The translations under genes were made by a program, and so were the position numbers. The notes beneath the pieces were generated by a model that did not search any database, was not told the origin of the DNA, and saw only the letters and a list, made by a program, of their open reading frames with translations. 64,000 nucleotides of DNA from Naegleria gruberi. Taxonomy: Eukaryota. Of the stretch, positions 3,279 through 49,381 are shown piece by piece (the stretch's first letter is position 1; every line of letters starts with the position of its first letter). Where the stretch lies: the NCBI GenBank assembly GCA_000004985.1, contig GG738902.1; one strand, written 5' to 3'.

Positions 3279-3284
3279 GGTAAG

Positions 3285-3357
3285 TGGAGATGCGGGGTAT
3301 CGATCCCCGTACCTCTTCCATGCTAAAGAAGCGCTCTACCATGTGAGCTACATCCCC
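3285..3357 (-). tRNA. tRNA-Ala (anticodon AGC), nuclear pol III type, 73 nt, no encoded CCA.
   Basis: The minus strand reads GGGGATGTAGCTCACATGGTAGAGCGCTTCTTTAGCATGGAAGAGGTACGGGGATCGATACCCCGCATCTCCA. Acceptor stem is 7 bp with the G3:U70 Ala identity pair. D-arm is GCTC/GAGC. Anticodon stem is CTTCT/GGAAG with loop TTAGCAT. T-arm is CGGGG/CCCCG. Discriminator is A. Confidence 0.9.
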
Positions 3358-41575: not shown

Positions 41576-43992
41576 TTACTCAAACTCCCTTGTAAATATT
41601 CCAGAAAGATCTTGTTCTGATAAAAAGGAACTACTCTCCCAAAATAGTGGATTCTCAAATCCTGTAATACCAACAGACGAGTAGTCTTCTGGTTGAGTAG
41701 GTGTAACTTCAATATTCAGTTGTGTATTTAGTGGAATGTCAATAGGAGTAGGTTGTACACTCACAACACGTCTAACTCTTATCAGAGACAAGTATTGTTC
41801 CATGTCTGCAAGAAGGTCCTTAAAGAAAAGCTCAACAAACTTGTATCGTTTTTTCATCAAATTAAAAGCTCTCATATCCTTCTCAAGAATATCGAAATAA
41901 TCAATTCCGTTATATCTGAAATCTGTACTTTGGCTTGAAATTAGTGTTTTGACAATTTGTAAATGCACATTGGTTGCCTTGGCTACACAGACAAGAGTTT
42001 CTATAGGGAAGAGTGGAAACCAAGCATGTTGCGTTATTTCTGTAATTTCCAAAGCTGCCTTCTCCATAATATCCCTAACAGTTGGATTGTGTGATTTAGA
42101 TAGAATTGAAATTCTCAGTGAGTTTGCAATTAGAGTAAATATTGGATCAACTAGTTCTTCATACTCAGGTCCTACAATTCACTTGTTCAGATATTTGTTT
42201 TATAATGAAACTTACCATATGAAAAACATGCAAGAGCAGGACTCTTTGTTGGAGTGTCTATCAATCCTTTGGCCACCTTTTTGATATTCTCCACACACAT
42301 TTGGACAACACTCCAAATTTCAAAACAATTTTCACTATTAACTTCTCTAGTCACTACACCGATCCATTCCTCTGGAAATTTATCCATTGTAAAGAAGCTA
42401 TAAATATCAGGCAATCTTCTGAGGAATTCTTTCAAGTCCAAACGATTCAAATCATCTCCCAATACATTGTTAAAATAAAATACAAGATTTTCCAAATTTC
42501 TCTCACAGTCTGTCATAGTAGCTCTCTTCTCCTCGCCACTGAGTTGCGTCTTGACATAGTACTGGAGAATTTGCATGTAGAATTTTGCATTTTCGTATCT
42601 TCCAACCCAGCCTTCATACGAGGCCAAATTACCATAAGTTGCTGCAATATGATAGCTTTGAATTTGGTCAAACATTTTAGAAAGTGCCTTTTTGGCTCTT
42701 TGAGCTGTCTTTTCTGCTAGCTCAGCGAGTCCATATCTACATTCACACAATGCTCTCACCGATAAGAAGAGAGGGAACATTTCCTTCTTGTTGCTCTTTT
42801 CTCCTTCGATATCATTTGGTGTTGTAATGTAATTTTCCAATTCTTCCTTGCTCACCAATGGACATCCATCACATGCAATATCAAAATAAAAGTCAATCAC
42901 ATTTCTCTTACTGAGATGACCAACTTCTTCCACATTATCACTATCGGAATCACTATTTTTTTCTGCAATATTATTGTTGGTGGTTGAATGGTATGGTTTG
43001 AATTTTGGATCATTCGAAACTACACCATCCTTTGGTTTGAATGAGGTAACTCCTTTCTTTTTCTTTCTCTTCTTTTTTTCCTCAGTTCCCTTGATTGCAT
43101 TCCTCTTTGATTCTCTATAAATACATTCCACAGATCGTTGTGTACATGCTGTACAACATGGCAATTTCTTATCTGTAATATTATGGTGAATTTTAAAATC
43201 AACAAATAATAAAATACCTACCACTATTAAGGATTTAAAATTAAAATGTTATTTAGATTATTTACATACCATTTTCTATTAAATAGTTAATAATATGAAG
43301 ATTAAAAACACATACCGATGCTGCTTTCTACAAGGCTCACAGGCAATTGGAAAGAATTCAGTATTATCGTCTGTTGCAGCTGTTTGATTTGGTGAGCCAG
43401 TCTTTTCGTTACCTTCTGAACCATTACTACTGCTACTACTCGATTGGCCATTAATAACATTAGTTGATAAATTAATATTTTGATTTGGAATAAATCCTCT
43501 ATTATTATTTACAAAATTCAAATATTCTTGTTGTCTTTGTTGGAAAAGCAATCCGAAACTGTTTGGATTCATTCCTCCCAATAATTGTTGCTGCATTAAT
43601 ATTTGTTGAAGACTTGGATTGTGATTATTCATCATTAATTGTTGATTTACAGGATTCATTGCAGGTTGTTGATTATTTACAGAAGAAATCGATGGATCTT
43701 GAACAGTTTCCCAACCAGAAGCAGAATTTCCTAAAGACTTTCCGAGTGATGATAAAAATCCACCATTATTTCCACTACTTGTATTATCATTACCTAAATT
43801 TGAAAGGAAATTCATTGATGATCCACTATTACTATTATTCATCATCATCATATTATTCATCAATACATTATTCATCATCAACTGGTGCTGAGACGTTGCC
43901 GAATAGCTTTGATTATTACTATTCATTTCAAACGTTTGTTTGGTGTTGTTATTTGTTGGTTCCGAGTTGTCTTGATGATTTAACGGACGCAT
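41576..43992 (-). CDS. Zn(II)2Cys6 (Gal4-type) transcription-factor-like protein. Minus-strand exons 43992..43316, 43275..43270 (6 nt), 43223..43222 (2 nt), 43172..42216 and 42171..41576. Introns are 40, 46, 49 and 44 nt.
   Basis: The spliced junction reads ...ACEPCRKQH R|K C|DKKLPCCTACTQRSVECIY, giving CX2CX6CX6CX2CX6C. Donors are GTATGT, GTATGT, GTAGGT and GTAAGT; acceptors are TAATAG, TAATAG, TTACAG and TTGTAG. The C-terminal half (LQIVKTL...GIDYFDILEKD) is paralogous to the gene at 44562..47128. Confidence 0.7.
43222..43223 (-). other. 2-nt microexon (TG) completing a Cys codon within the Zn2Cys6 gene.
   Basis: Flanked by CCTTAATAG| and |GTAGGTATTTT. A paralogous TG microexon is present at 45316..45317. 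Confidence 0.6.
43270..43275 (-). other. 6-nt microexon (AAAATG) within the Zn2Cys6 gene.
   Basis: Flanked by TTTAATAG| and |GTATGTAAA. Needed to complete the codons CGA-AAA-TG. Confidence 0.55.
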
Positions 43993-44561
43993 TTTTTTCT
44001 TTTAGAATTTAAAATTTCCCGCTACAAAAATGTTAAACACTTCAAAATTGGAATTAAAATTTTGTAATATTGTACCAAATAAATATGTTTAATCAAATTC
44101 CATTCTTGTAATTCATATCCTTTTGTTGTACAGCTTCACCAAGTCAACCAATAGACAATATTTGAACGATTCCACTTATTTTTTTCTATCAGGAAAATGC
44201 TTGAACAGAATCCTCAAATAATGATGAAGGAATGAGATCATAAATGAGTTTGAAGAATTGTCTTTCCACTCAGTATCATCATGTTATCAATACTGAGATC
44301 AACATGCTTAGTAGAGGTGGAGAATAATAAAATTGAAATACCAGCAGCACTTTGGAGGACCTCCATTCGATTCTTGCTCCAATCGTGCTCTTTTTTGTCT
44401 CTTGTTCTCAATTATCAATGTGCGCTCAATTTCCGACGCAAGAATCAAAAAAAAAAAAGACGTTTTCCGTTCGCTCGTCCGTGATGCTTTAGAAACAAGC
44501 AACAGATAACAACACTGTAAAAAAGAAGAATTTGTGGCGTTTTGAGAAAGAGAAGGAAAGA

Positions 44562-47128
44562 ATGAATTCGTCATCAACATCACCACAACAGGCTCCTCCT
44601 CAAGGCTTTGGAAGTTTTCCTTCCTCCCCTAACAATAACATGTATACACAGCCTCAGCAACAACAATATTCTTCCTATAATAATAGTTTAAATAGTAGTA
44701 ATAGTACTAATAACAACATGATGATGATGAATAGTGTCCACCATCATCAGCCTCTTCCTTCATCTCCTTATAATCAACATCATCATGTGGCATCTCAATC
44801 AAACACCTCACAACAGCAACAGTATTATGATAATAACAATAATTATCAGGAATATAATAGACCACCGAATAATAATAACATGAATCATTCATCATCGATG
44901 AATAATGGTACGATGATTTCACTTCCTAGTCAAAATTCCTCCTATCAGACGTCACCATCACAATATGGCAACAGTAATAACAATAACTTTATTTATAATA
45001 TTCCACCACCATCCACACCACAGCAACCACCACCTCAACAAAATTATCATAATGGAATGCAAGGAATGAGTAGTAGTTCATATCAATTTGCGAATAGTAA
45101 TGGAATGCACAATAGAATGAATAATCAAAATGTGTCACCACCCATGAATCAACAACAAAATCTCGAATCAAGTCCAGAAGAAAATTCGTCATCACCAAAT
45201 GCTGAGCAATTGGGAAATTCGGATTTTCATCCCATCGCCTGTATAAATTGCAGAAAGCAACACAAACAATGGTAAGTTTAGTTATATTTGGAATTAAATC
45301 GATAACATTTTATAGTGGTAAGTATTAAATAAGAGAAATTGATTATTTAATGTTTCGGATATATAATTTAAACCTATCAGATAAGAAATTACCAAGTTGT
45401 CAACGATGTATTTCGAAAGGTATAACTTGTGAATATAAAACGCCTAGAAGAATGAGATATCCAAATCAGTCGAAACAAAAACAACAGCAACAGTCAACTG
45501 AGGAACAGCAACAATCAGAACCAAAGAAGAAGAAAAAGAAAACCGACTCGAAAGATAACCTAACACCAAAATCAAACTCTCCTCTCGATCCAGAAAATGT
45601 TTGTGCTCCAAATACAACTCTCACTAGCAGATTCCCTCAAACTCTCTCAAAAAAGAATATTATTGATATTTATTATAGCATGATATGCGATCACTTTATA
45701 TTTATTGAAAAACCAGTATTGGAAAAGTATATTCTTTCCAAGAGTAATAGTGAAGATGTGGATGATTCAGAATTACCACTCAAGAAGGAAATGCAGACAT
45801 TCTTCTTCTCTGTGACAGCACTAGTGGAACAACGTATGGGAATGGGAGATTTATCTGAAAAATCAGCAAAGAAGGCTAGAGATTGTCTTTCTAAACTTTT
45901 TGATGAAATGAATAACTTTGTAGTTGCCTGTTCGTATGCAAATTTGGGATCATATGAGATTGGATCAGGACGAGTCAAACTATCCAGGTTCTATTTCCAT
46001 AATGCCAAGTTTTACTTTGAAAGTTTGGACGATTCTGAAAAGTCAAGGTTATCAGAGCATGAAAAGGCTCTCCAAAAATACTTGACATCAGTGGAAATTG
46101 TAAATGCAGATAATGATCTAGGAATTTCAGCCATGATACATGACATGCCAAAAGTTTTTCATTTCACCACAGGACATCACTTACCTCAAGAAATTGTTAA
46201 AGCAACTCAACAAGAGGTCAGTCCTTCGAATTGTTTGGACTATCTCAAGATTGTGGAAATGATTGCCTCGTACTTGAACAAGTATTTCAGAGGTATGGCC
46301 ACTAAAACTAGAGGAGAAAAGGAAATGGAAATGTATGACAAGGGTAGTAATCTCTGCCAAGGTTTACTAATGAACGGATTACGTGTAGGTGTCTTGACTA
46401 AGGCAGGGTATGGCAAGGATCTTATTGAAGAGTCTTCTTTGAGAATTACGTATGCGTCCGAGAGTGAATTTTTTCCATTCCTTCCTGTTATTGTAATTCC
46501 ACACGTTGCTCTCGCTGCCCGTATTCACTTACAAATTGTAAAAAAGATTGAAAATGGTACCAGACAAAATCATCAGAAAGGGCTCACTTTCCAAAATACC
46601 GTTGGACCTATTGATTATTTTGATATTCTGGCAAAAGATTACAGATCACTCATTATTCTCTCTAAAAGATTTAAGAGAGTGTCGGTATGTTACGGTTCTC
46701 TCCTTGATGAAATTAAAGAGATTTTAGGTAGGAGAGTTGAAGCTCAGCAAAACAACGACACCACCTCGACAAATAACTCTAATACTGTTACTACCCCAAT
46801 TGCAGATGATGCACTCTTACAGCCACTTTCCTTAGACTCTTCCAGCCTGCCTCCACTGTCCTTCCTTCTAGGTTCTATGAATGATAATCCTTCACTACCT
46901 CAATCTTCAAGCTCTCAAAAATCAACCCTTGATGGATATGCTTCCAACAATTTACAACAAAGCATTTTCAATTCAATAATTCAATCTCCAATCAAATCAC
47001 CCTCACAACAACAAGAGTTGTACTTTGCTGATCCATTCTTTACACACGAAGATTTACAACAAATATTTTCTCCACATACGTATGGCGATTTTGAGGATGT
47101 ATCAGAATATAGTTTTAATGTGAAATAA
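44562..47128 (+). CDS. Zn(II)2Cys6 transcription-factor-like paralogue. Exons 44562..45271, 45316..45317 (2-nt microexon) and 45381..47128.
   Basis: Exon 1 ends ...FHPIACINCRKQHKQ + tg. Intron 1 is 45272..45315 (GTAAGT...TTTTATAG). Microexon is TG. Intron 2 is 45318..45380 (GTAAGT...CTATCAG). Exon 3 starts ATAAGAAATTACCAAGTTGT. The spliced protein reads ACINCRKQHKQCDKKLPSCQRCISKGITCEY. The N-terminus is N/Q-rich; the C-terminus is homologous to the minus-strand paralogue. Confidence 0.7.
45316..45317 (+). other. 2-nt microexon (TG).
   Basis: TTTTATAG|TG|GTAAGTATTAAAT. Without it the zinc-cluster frame cannot be joined. Confidence 0.6.
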
Positions 47129-47493: not shown

Positions 47494-49381
47494 TCAGGTA
47501 AATTCCAATTTGAACTTTTTTAGGAATAAATTGTTGTAATTCAACAGTTTCGTTTCCAAGGCTCTCCATGATTTTTCTTAATAATTCATAAATTTCAATA
47601 ATTTCACTTAATTCATCCTTATTTAACAATTGAATGTCAGTTAAATATTCTTGATTCAAATATGTTTTGATAAATTCATCCAATACTATTAACTTCTCTT
47701 CCAATTCTTGAATATATTTGGTCAATTTCATTAAAAAATTCTCCGATTTAATGCTTTCTACCATACAAGTCATGTTTAACTTTAGTTCATCAACTTGTGA
47801 ACTTTCTTGTTCAAGTTTCAATTCATTAGCATGTTCAAAACAATTCTTTAACTTTTCACAAATTTCCAAATATTCTTTTTGAAATTCATTTTCTAATACA
47901 GTACATAAAACCTTAATTGCATTGATTTGTGAATTGGATTGAGTTTCTTCTTGTCTTTCAATATTTGTTTCTTGTGTTTCGTCTTGTTCTTTAATATTTT
48001 CGTCTTGTTTTTCGAGAGTTTCTTGATTTTCATCATGTTTTTCCTCTTGTTGTTCGAGAGTTTCTTGGTTTTCATCATGTTTTTCAAGTGGTTCTTGTTT
48101 TTCAAGAATTTCTTTCTTAATTTTATCTTTTTCAACTTTTTCATTCAATTCCTTCTTAATTTTGGAAATTTCCTTTCCGTTGACTTTCCATAAATTGTTA
48201 ATTTTAATATTTGGTGATTGAAGTAATAATTTAACAATTTCTAAACGTCCTTTTTCACATGCAATATGTAATGGAGACTAATAAATATTTAAAAATGTTG
48301 TAATTATTATTACTTACTTCCTATTATGGTAATGTTTAAAATAAGTATTAAATACAAACCATCTAAATAATAATGTAAAATATTTTAAATATTTAATTCT
48401 TACATGCTACGAGGAAATAATTAATAAATTAATTATTAATTTACATACTTCCTAAAATAGATAAATAATTTAATTGGTTAATTACTCACTTTCTAATAAC
48501 AAAGTTGGCAAATTAATTTCAATATTTAATAATACTAACTTCCTATTAAAAAAATTAATATTAAATATTAAAAATACTAACAATCTAAAAAAATGTAAAT
48601 ATTTAAAATTGTTTAAAAACTTACAACTCTCTAAAACAAATATACACGTAATTTAATTAGTAGAGACTTACTTGCTAATAAAAATATTAATTTAAGATTA
48701 TATTACTTAAATTACATACTTCCTAATAAGGAACTTGTTCATAAATAAAGAATTTAATACTTACTCCCTAATAATATTAACATTAAATAGTTATAAGTGA
48801 AATACTAACTTTCTAATAAATTATTTTATAAATAACTAAGTATTAAATACTTACATGCTAATAAAATGCTAATTTAATACAAAATTACCAAATTTAGAAT
48901 ACTTACATACTAAAAATAGTATTATTTTTATATTTTTTAATATTAAATTACTTACAGTCTGAAAATATTATTATTACAATGCTAGCAACACTTACAAACT
49001 AATAGCATTAAATATAAATAATTAATTATTCAATTCCTTACATACTAATTAATTATTTAGTATTTTACAATATTTCCTTAAATACTTACTTTCTACAATC
49101 ATACCCATTTAGATCTTATTAAACAATTGATATTCTACTCACATACTACTCAATTTTAAATATTTATAATGTTAATATTAAATAGTACTTACTCCCTTAT
49201 TCACATCAAGTCCTCCACAATTCAACAATAACTTGACAATTTCCAAATGTCCCCTCTCACAAGCCATGTACAACAATGTCTTATTCCGATCAGATTCATT
49301 TACCTTCGTTGGCTTGAAATACTTTTTAAACTCGGCAACGTTTCCACTATTTGCAGCATCTACAAGATGAGGAGAGAGCAT
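47477..49381 (-). CDS. Ankyrin-repeat plus acidic coiled-coil protein. First exon 49381..49193, a 915-nt microexon/mini-intron array at 49192..48278, and a downstream exon 48277..47477.
   Basis: Upstream exon reads ...TLLYMACERGHLEIVKLLLNCGGLDVNKG. Downstream exon reads SPLHIACEKGRLEIVKLLLQSPNIKINNLWKVNGKEISKIKKELNEKVEKDK..., in frame with ORF 47477..48148, then an E/K-rich helix. Confidence 0.65.
48278..49192 (-). other. Array of 20 tandem mini-introns (about 37-50 nt) separated by 19 microexons of 3 nt (one alternatively 6 nt).
   Basis: The minus strand reads GGA|GTAAGTAC...GAGTAG|TAT|GTGAGTAG...TTGTAG|AAA|GTAAGTAT...TAATTAG|TAT|GTAAGG...TATTAG|TTT|GTAAGTG...TTTTCAG|ACT|GTAAGTAA...TTTTTAG|TAT|GTAAGTAT...TTATTAG|CAT|GTAAGTAT...TTATTAG|AAA|GTTAGTAT...TTATTAG|GGA|GTAAGTAT...TTATTAG|GAA|GTATGTAA...TTATTAG|CAA|GTAAGTCT...TTTTAG|AGA|GTTGTAAGT...TTTTTAG|ATT|GTTAGTAT...TTAATAG|GAA|GTTAGTAT...TTATTAG|AAA|GTGAGTAA...TTTTAG|GAA|GTATGTAA...CTCGTAG|CAT|GTAAGA...TTATTTAG|ATG|GTTTGTAT...CATAATAG|GAA|GTAAGTAA...TTATTAG|TCTCCA. 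None of the 3-nt units is a stop codon. Confidence 0.7.

Follow-up and report, generated by a model that had tools for sequence, protein, structure and literature searches.

Ultra-short exons are already known as a class. Single-nucleotide exons with transcript support have been described from the APC11 gene of Arabidopsis (PMC4674806) and the CYP621A gene of Fusarium (PMC12940212), and exons of 2-5 bp have been cited for Arabidopsis, Drosophila and human (PMC12940212). A related arrangement is found in the stwintrons and abutting introns of fungi, in which closely set U2 introns are removed consecutively and which have been proposed to originate in local duplications of parts of introns (PMC7138796, PMC5587772). 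Here we describe two adjacent, head-to-head genes from a stretch of 64,000 nucleotides (nt) of Naegleria gruberi nuclear DNA, contig GG738902.1 (assembly GCA_000004985.1; the whole stretch is called the window below), namely NAEGRDRAFT_73153 on the plus strand (the plus gene) and NAEGRDRAFT_73151 on the minus strand (the minus gene). Very probably these are Gal4-type Zn2Cys6 paralogues, each encoding a zinc cluster, a basic linker and a Cep3-like domain, in which two U2 mini-introns lying 2 nt apart split the codons of the third cysteine of the cluster (Cys3) and of the aspartate that follows it, so that a 2-nt exon, TG, would be left in the mature mRNA; a third intron of the minus gene, 6 nt upstream, would add a 6-nt exon.

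The TG exon resembles those of APC11 and CYP621A in several respects: it has canonical AG and GT borders, lies inside a highly conserved motif, is essential for the reading frame, ends in a G that suits the donor consensus, was overlooked by automatic annotation and is recognised through an uninterrupted relative. It differs from them in its host, a heterolobosean amoeboflagellate (Discoba), in its occurrence in two paralogues, and in being known from sequence, whereas the published cases are known from transcripts. With fungal stwintrons the Naegleria introns share a spacing too close for simultaneous removal, and in Naegleria fowleri intron 1 of the plus-gene orthologue resembles the 5' part of intron 2. 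Unlike in stwintrons, however, every donor and acceptor is intact, neither intron breaks the splice signal of the other, and the 2 nt left between them would be kept in the mRNA.

Recursive splicing proceeds through zero-length exons at AG/GT ratchet points, in introns of tens of kilobases. Near-juxtaposed acceptor and donor sites and a stepwise removal would be common to both situations, while in Naegleria the introns measure 40-63 nt and 2 coding nt would be retained. A further comparison is with near-intron pairs and with the parallel gain of introns at hot spots, e.g. in Daphnia, where homologous genes have intron positions a few nt apart; in Naegleria, unlike there, the neighbouring introns coexist in one gene and enclose exons of 2, 6, 7 or 12 nt. 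The encoded proteins agree with the fungal Gal4-type factors and Cep3 in the six-cysteine spacing, the KCD..P motif, the basic linker and an all-helical Cep3-like domain, but they are non-fungal; N. gruberi has been recorded with 71 zinc-cluster proteins (PMC5611559). A literature search found no paper joining Naegleria with microexons.

Both strands of positions 42400-46200 were read and all junctions were placed by script (Table 1), the splicing being conceptual throughout. Exon 1 of the plus gene codes for an Asn/Gln-rich N-terminus and the first half of the zinc cluster (...FHPIACINCRKQHKQ followed by TG), and its end, ...EFHPIACINCRKMHK, is common to this gene and its N. fowleri orthologue; the last exon codes for the second half of the cluster, the basic linker and the all-helical Cep3-like domain. 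The spliced plus product reads ...ACINCRKQHKQCDKKLPSCQRCISKGITCEY... and the minus product ...ACEPCRKQHRKCDKKLPCCTACTQRSVECIY..., and both show the spacing CX2CX6CX6CX2CX6C, which lies within the family rule CX2CX6CX5-12CX2CX6-8C. In the predicted mRNAs the region of the microexons reads ...CAATGTGATAAGAAATTACC... (plus gene) and ...CGAAAATGTGATAAGAAATTGCC... (minus gene). The corresponding junction k-mers are CACAAACAATGTGATAAGAAATTACC for the plus gene with TG included and CATCGAAAATGTGATAAGAAATTGCC for the minus gene with both microexons, CACAAACAATGATAAGAAATTACC and CATCGAAAATGATAAGAAATTGCC for the two genes with TG skipped, and GCATCGTGATAAGAAATTGCC for the minus gene with the 6-nt exon skipped.

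To assess how far the cluster depends on the 2-nt exon, all combinations of GT-AG sites that bridge each gap were enumerated, allowing a maximum of four introns and a minimum intron length of 20 nt. In the plus gene three of 91 such paths stay in frame throughout the downstream exon, and the Zn2Cys6 spacing is obtained from the TG path only; in the minus gene the frame survives in 28 of 189 and the spacing in two, one of which is the TG path. Scores against the Pfam model PF00172 (cut-off 21 bits), compared on fragments of equal size, rank the paths in the same way: the TG path reaches 43.1 bits in the plus gene, against 23.6 and 21.4 bits for the alternatives, and 36.6 bits in the minus gene, against 30.2, 21.4 and 17.4 bits. 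Over its full length the plus product reaches 37.1 bits and the minus product 31.5 bits, both above the cut-off. The spliced domain also aligns with PUT3, HAP1, LAC9, Cep3 and PPR1 (E-values 6e-5 to 8e-3), and the cysteine built by means of the microexon falls on the third zinc ligand of these proteins. Both products are Zn2Cys6 zinc-cluster proteins as judged from these matches, and binding of zinc and DNA is predicted for them; a Pfam scan of both proteins gave no match to Fungal_trans.

Could the gap be removed through other sites, leaving no 2-nt exon, for instance as one intron of 125 nt (45272-45396) in the plus gene and, in the minus gene, by way of an exon of 20 nt and an intron of 31 nt? 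Such paths do preserve the reading frame, but they wreck or distort the cluster (the resulting KQCCQRC corresponds to 21.4 bits as opposed to 43.1 for the TG path) and drop the residues DKKLPS, which are conserved in the protein with synonymous differences between species. They also rely on weak sites and conflict with the orthologues, and we consider this solution very improbable. A variant in which the donor is moved by 2 nt (...TGGT/AAGT) was likewise rejected: it keeps the frame as WYKKLP, but the zinc ligand is lost and the score is lower, at 32.8 bits.

Chance, too, is a poor explanation of the arrangement. In random sequence of the intron composition, an internal AG-TG-GT[AG][ATG]GT flanked by two introns of at least 30 nt is expected with P ~2e-4 per gene, and the joint chance for both genes is ~3.5e-8. 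A scan of the 64-kb window for a short intron, an exon of 1-9 nt and another short intron returned 17 matches against 1.3 expected, and all 17 fall at three places, i.e. the two TG sites and an array at 48278-49192 in a nearby gene. A looser scan (exons of 1-15 nt, introns up to 200 nt) was swamped by chance matches and was dropped. The earlier note on this DNA had held, from the letters of the window, that the zinc cluster of both genes can be assembled only with the TG exon and that coincidence is unlikely. Path enumeration, profile scores and orthologues agree with the first statement and the probabilities above with the second; its coordinates, lengths and peptides for both genes were confirmed to the base, and the profile match it had proposed as a check was found in both spliced proteins.

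The splice sites themselves are ordinary. All five introns around the microexons have U2-type ends, with the strong donors GTAAGT (twice), GTATGT (twice) and GTAGGT and acceptors TAG or CAG, and in length they are like the few introns elsewhere in the window, where a crude screen of the 64 kb gave just two other short introns with long flanking frames (44 and 56 nt). No unusual RNA structure was found at the site (fold z-scores -1.1 and -0.3), and an Rfam search of the window returned only a tRNA (3285-3357). This is a tRNA-Ala (AGC) gene at 3284-3357 on the minus strand.

Each of these introns would be recognised across itself (intron definition). Removal of the two introns next to TG would be consecutive, because U1 on the downstream donor (TG/GTAAGT or TG/GTAGGT) and the factors at the upstream AG cannot share 10 nt at once. 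After either reaction, complete signals would remain for the second intron, and since either order leaves an intact site, special recognition of a 2-nt exon is unnecessary. The idea, put forward in the earlier note, of a spliceosome able to "define" 2-nt exons is thus needless: it suffices that each short intron is recognised across itself and removed in turn.

By the sequence, skipping of TG brings TGA TAA into frame at once in both genes, and a regulatory use of such skipping is possible. A more specific proposal, which would refine the explanation given above and is compatible with it, is that TG acts as a splicing switch, many transcripts skipping it so that the product is truncated or degraded. 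The two immediate stops in both paralogues would suit this proposal, and the crowding of family introns described below (13 of ~17 in one 23-nt segment) would fit selection for an intron at this place. The donors GTAAGT and GTAGGT, however, are strong and point to efficient use, and skipping of the 12-nt exon of N. fowleri would stay in frame, so that the stop is not common to the species; on balance a switch of this kind appears unlikely.

In the public model of the plus gene, XP_002671853.1, which starts at Met262, the first 261 residues are missing and with them the entire DNA-binding domain. NAEGRDRAFT_58437 (P0091, starting MPSCDRC...) looks shortened in the same manner. For the minus gene the deposited model is XP_002671912.1 (P0003), which reads ...CRKQHRKCDKKLPCC... 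and already uses both microexons, without comment. It equals the model built here except for one added intron of 63 nt (43894-43832) with the weak donor GTCTCA, inside an Asn/Met-rich stretch of low complexity, and this intron is probably a prediction artefact. In the protein collection searched, no transcript-derived copy of the plus or the minus gene was found. The truncated plus-gene model could be read as a sign that the loci are pseudogenes or untranscribed, with the AG-TG-GT arrangement a relic or a coincidence. Against this stand the intact reading frames (236 and 582 codons in the plus gene, 745 in the minus gene), the identity to orthologues (65-67% between the plus gene and that of N. 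fowleri, 51% between the minus gene and the metagenomic orthologue L004), the same solution in two genes and the joint chance of 3.5e-8, which together make decay the least probable of the readings considered here.

The best explanation remains a 2-nt exon in two otherwise intact zinc-cluster genes, and we now turn to its distribution among relatives. N. fowleri carries orthologues of both genes in tandem (VFQX01000007.1, here L001). The two paralogues lie head to head in N. gruberi (41576-47128) and head to tail in N. fowleri (L001 10001-15218), from which it follows that one gene has been inverted; synteny with N. fowleri within 10 kb does not extend beyond the two zinc-cluster genes. The plus-gene orthologue of N. 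fowleri reads ...CAT AAG, a 68-nt intron, CAATGCGATAAG, a 187-nt intron and AAA CTC CCA, and two protein models, XP_044567429.1 and CAG4711921.1 (P0004, P0005), include this 12-nt exon, read as CRKMHKQCDKKLPSC; their HKQCDKKLPSC is identical to the spliced plus product of N. gruberi. A third model, XP_044567455.1, skips the exon and so loses a zinc ligand. The minus-gene orthologue of N. fowleri is one continuous open reading frame across the cluster, CINCRKQHRKCSKHLPSCVEC, and L004 is likewise unbroken there, in line with the expectation of the earlier note that an orthologue should be uninterrupted at this codon.

An exhaustive profile search with the product of the last exon gave 126 family representatives. 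Ten of them were traced to their source (N. gruberi, N. lovaniensis and Willaertia magna), and DNA was fetched for seven. Among the loci compared, four lie on metagenome contigs of vahlkampfiid-like organisms, their splice junctions being conceptual. Two scans of JGI metagenomes for relatives gave no matches, the automatically chosen peptide patterns being poor. Introns were mapped by script, with numbering from the His codon of the motif H-(K/R)-x-C-D-K-K-L-P-S (Table 1). The plus-like orthologue L007 (JGI metagenome 3300002220, 570-671) has its microexon at 606-612 in the loop between Cys3 and Cys4, between introns of 36 and 59 nt; the path through this 7-nt exon scores 34.9 bits on the Pfam model against 26.9, 25.8 and 21.1 bits for the alternatives. 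The intron of paralogue L003 occupies the position of plus-gene intron 2, and that of L005 the position of minus-gene intron A. In L005 (ENA ERZ929261, 3062-3106) the intron is 45 nt long, stop-free and divisible by 3, and it was read through by the caller of open reading frames, which puts YVYSSHLFSINNSN into the zinc cluster of protein P0095. A further contig of the same dataset, L002 (k127_438657), comes from an organism very near to N. gruberi NEG-M (~92% protein identity). It was set aside as a comparison, as of the plus gene and the array gene it covers just the 3' ends, and it is too similar to inform.

Table 1. Coordinates of the two zinc-cluster genes in the window and of the 12-nt exon of N. 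fowleri, and positions of introns in the mapped members of the family (in nt, counted from the His codon).
Feature	Position	Strand	Description
Plus gene, NAEGRDRAFT_73153, model extended in this analysis	44562-47128	+	product of 819 residues
Plus gene, exon 1	44562..45271	+	open frame from ATG at 44562; 3' end ...AAA CAA TG
Plus gene, intron 1	45272..45315	+	44 nt, GTAAGT...TATAG; after 2nd base of Cys3 codon
Plus gene, 2-nt exon TG	45316..45317	+	3rd base of Cys3 codon and 1st base of Asp codon
Plus gene, intron 2	45318..45380	+	63 nt, GTAAGT...ATCAG; phase 1, within Asp codon
Plus gene, last exon, including stop	45381..47128	+	starts ATAAGAAATTACCA (AT AAG AAA TTA CCA...)
Minus gene, NAEGRDRAFT_73151	43992-41576	-	ATG at 43992; product of 745 residues
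Minus gene, exon 1	43316..43992	-	3' end ...CRKQH + CG (...CAT CG)
Minus gene, intron A	43276..43315	-	40 nt, GTATGT...AATAG; phase 2, within Arg codon
Minus gene, 6-nt exon AAAATG	43270..43275	-	also in public model XP_002671912.1
Minus gene, intron B	43224..43269	-	46 nt, GTATGT...AATAG
Minus gene, 2-nt exon TG	43222..43223	-	uninterrupted orthologues read here RKCSKHLP (N. fowleri) and RRCDRRLP (L004)
Minus gene, intron C	43173..43221	-	49 nt, GTAGGT...TACAG
Minus gene, exon 4	42216..43172	-	starts ATAAGAAATTGCCA
Minus gene, intron D	42172..42215	-	44 nt, GTAAGT...TGTAG; absent from L004 orthologue (whole gene a single open reading frame)
Minus gene, last exon, including stop	41576..42171	-	
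N. fowleri plus orthologue, 12-nt exon CAATGCGATAAG with flanking introns	L001 10706-10972		
Family map: N. gruberi plus gene	introns after nt 11, 13		microexon TG (2 nt)
Family map: N. gruberi minus gene	introns after nt 5, 11, 13		microexons AAAATG (6 nt), TG (2 nt)
Family map: N. fowleri plus orthologue (L001)	introns after nt 6, 18		12-nt microexon
Family map: L007, plus-like metagenome orthologue	introns after nt 20, 27		microexon ATTACCT (7 nt)
Family map: L003 paralogue	intron after nt 13		no microexon
Family map: L005 paralogue, N. gruberi-like organism	intron after nt 5		no microexon
Family map: L006 paralogue	intron after nt 21		no microexon
Family map: N. lovaniensis paralogue (L009)	intron after nt 21		no microexon
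Family map: N. fowleri minus orthologue	no introns		no microexon
Family map: L004 minus orthologue (51% identical)	no introns		no microexon
Family map: W. magna member (L008)	no introns		no microexon

The introns of the eleven family genes occupy eight different positions in a segment of 23 nt, which holds about 13 of the ~17 introns visible in the mapped genes (binomial P ~1e-22), and among genes that had not been chosen for broken-looking models the count is 8 of 12 (P ~1e-13). Since four loci were picked for interrupted-looking models, the share of the family with an intron here is overestimated, while the concentration within genes is unaffected. The term "conserved", which the earlier note had applied to the 2-nt exon, therefore holds between the two N. 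gruberi paralogues but not beyond them, as orthologues elsewhere have other intron positions or none. On the available map the 2-nt exon is specific to N. gruberi, and conservation applies to the occurrence of introns at some point within this short segment. In N. fowleri, intron 1 of the plus orthologue resembles the first ~60 nt of intron 2, including the context ATAAG/GT (P ~0.001), a hint that new introns may stem in part from local duplication of intron sequence. The two introns flanking TG in N. gruberi show no such similarity when compared with each other (P 0.67), and an origin of the pair by duplication of one intron is unsupported.

How the two paralogues came to share both intron positions is a separate question. 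Although adjacent, they are only ~25-30% identical. Over the 18 nt from Cys3 to Pro, in contrast, 17 bases of the minus gene are those of its neighbour, as against 13 and 9 that agree with its own orthologues; in the flanks the agreement with the neighbour is just 26 of 42 (Fisher P = 0.008). Minus-gene intron B and plus-gene intron 1 share the 11-mer ATAACATTTTA and form the most similar pair of introns (P ~0.01). The tract match, the shared 11-mer and the lack of positions 11 and 13 in the orthologues of other species favour gene conversion, and with moderate confidence we suggest that a short conversion tract moved both introns between the paralogues in the lineage of N. gruberi. The intron within the Asp codon (position 13) would be the older one, a view suggested by its use in the distant paralogue L003; the second intron would then have arisen 2 nt upstream of it, and the pair would have been copied between the adjacent genes. 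Under the alternative, both shared positions would be ancestral and older than the gene duplication; the other species would have lost or shifted them afterwards, and gene conversion would have played no part. The use of the Asp-codon position in L003 can be cited for this history too, but both positions are absent from three orthologues of the two genes in other species, and paralogues so divergent would hardly be expected to share a near-identical 18-nt tract and an intron 11-mer; we hold an ancestral origin to be somewhat unlikely.

Taken more broadly, the map allows a tentative suggestion, namely that the 23 nt coding for His to Pro of the Cys3-Cys4 loop may be a hot spot of intron turnover in the vahlkampfiid Zn2Cys6 family, where repeated gain, shift, local duplication and copying between paralogues would have left introns 2-12 nt apart, with microexons of 2, 7 and 12 nt among the orthologues of a single gene. 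The array 3 kb away could be a product of that process too.

Several points weigh against the reading preferred here. The removal of the introns, like its order and efficiency, is predicted from sequence, and the branch points are at most candidates, in the form of TAAC- and TAAT-like motifs. In the minus gene the second motif-compatible path, with its 20-nt exon, weak GTTGAT donor and 31-nt intron, exists beside the TG path. The doubtful 63-nt intron in XP_002671912.1 implies that this model, in which both minus-gene microexons appear, may stem from a homology-guided predictor and not from transcripts. Finally, the case for gene conversion rests on 18 nt and a weak similarity of introns.

The array that was met in the scan of the window lies in an ankyrin-repeat gene on the minus strand (48278-49192) and consists of 20 consecutive GT...AG units of 37-50 nt. 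Its spacers, 18 pieces of 3 nt and one of 6 nt, are all multiples of 3, whereas the intron lengths are spread over all residues modulo 3; read together the spacers give YKYFTYHKGEQRVIEKEHME, which is stop-free. The public model P0008 joins another subset of the pieces, FTYHFISIKLGQEEME. In L002 the last intron of the array differs from that of the window by a 3-nt deletion. The Pfam model Ank_2 scores 63.7 bits without the array codons, 58.1 with all 19 and 64.6 with the last five, and these codons are accordingly not required by protein homology. Neither in the array nor at the microexons did Tandem Repeats Finder detect a repeat of long period, and a recent tandem duplication was ruled out as its origin, the introns being barely more alike than shuffled sequences. 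The arrangement resembles the micro-exon genes of schistosomes. The further claim of the earlier note, that the TG exon supports reading all 19 microexons of the array as spliceable, is a plausibility argument only.

For N. gruberi itself the consequences concern gene models as well as splicing. The public model of NAEGRDRAFT_73153 is without its DNA-binding domain and XP_044567455.1 of N. fowleri without its 12-nt exon, and others among the 71 N. gruberi models may suffer alike. The TG exon would extend exons of at most 5 nt to a lineage distant from plants, fungi and animals, and it would offer a natural substrate on which two spliceosomes meet sites 2 nt apart. More unusual than the exon is the variable and still provisional intron map. 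Three orthologues with three different microexons, and eight positions in 23 nt, make the set of near-intron pairs unusually dense, and this in a genome poor in introns; such a map could open intron gain, sliding and transfer between paralogues to direct tests.

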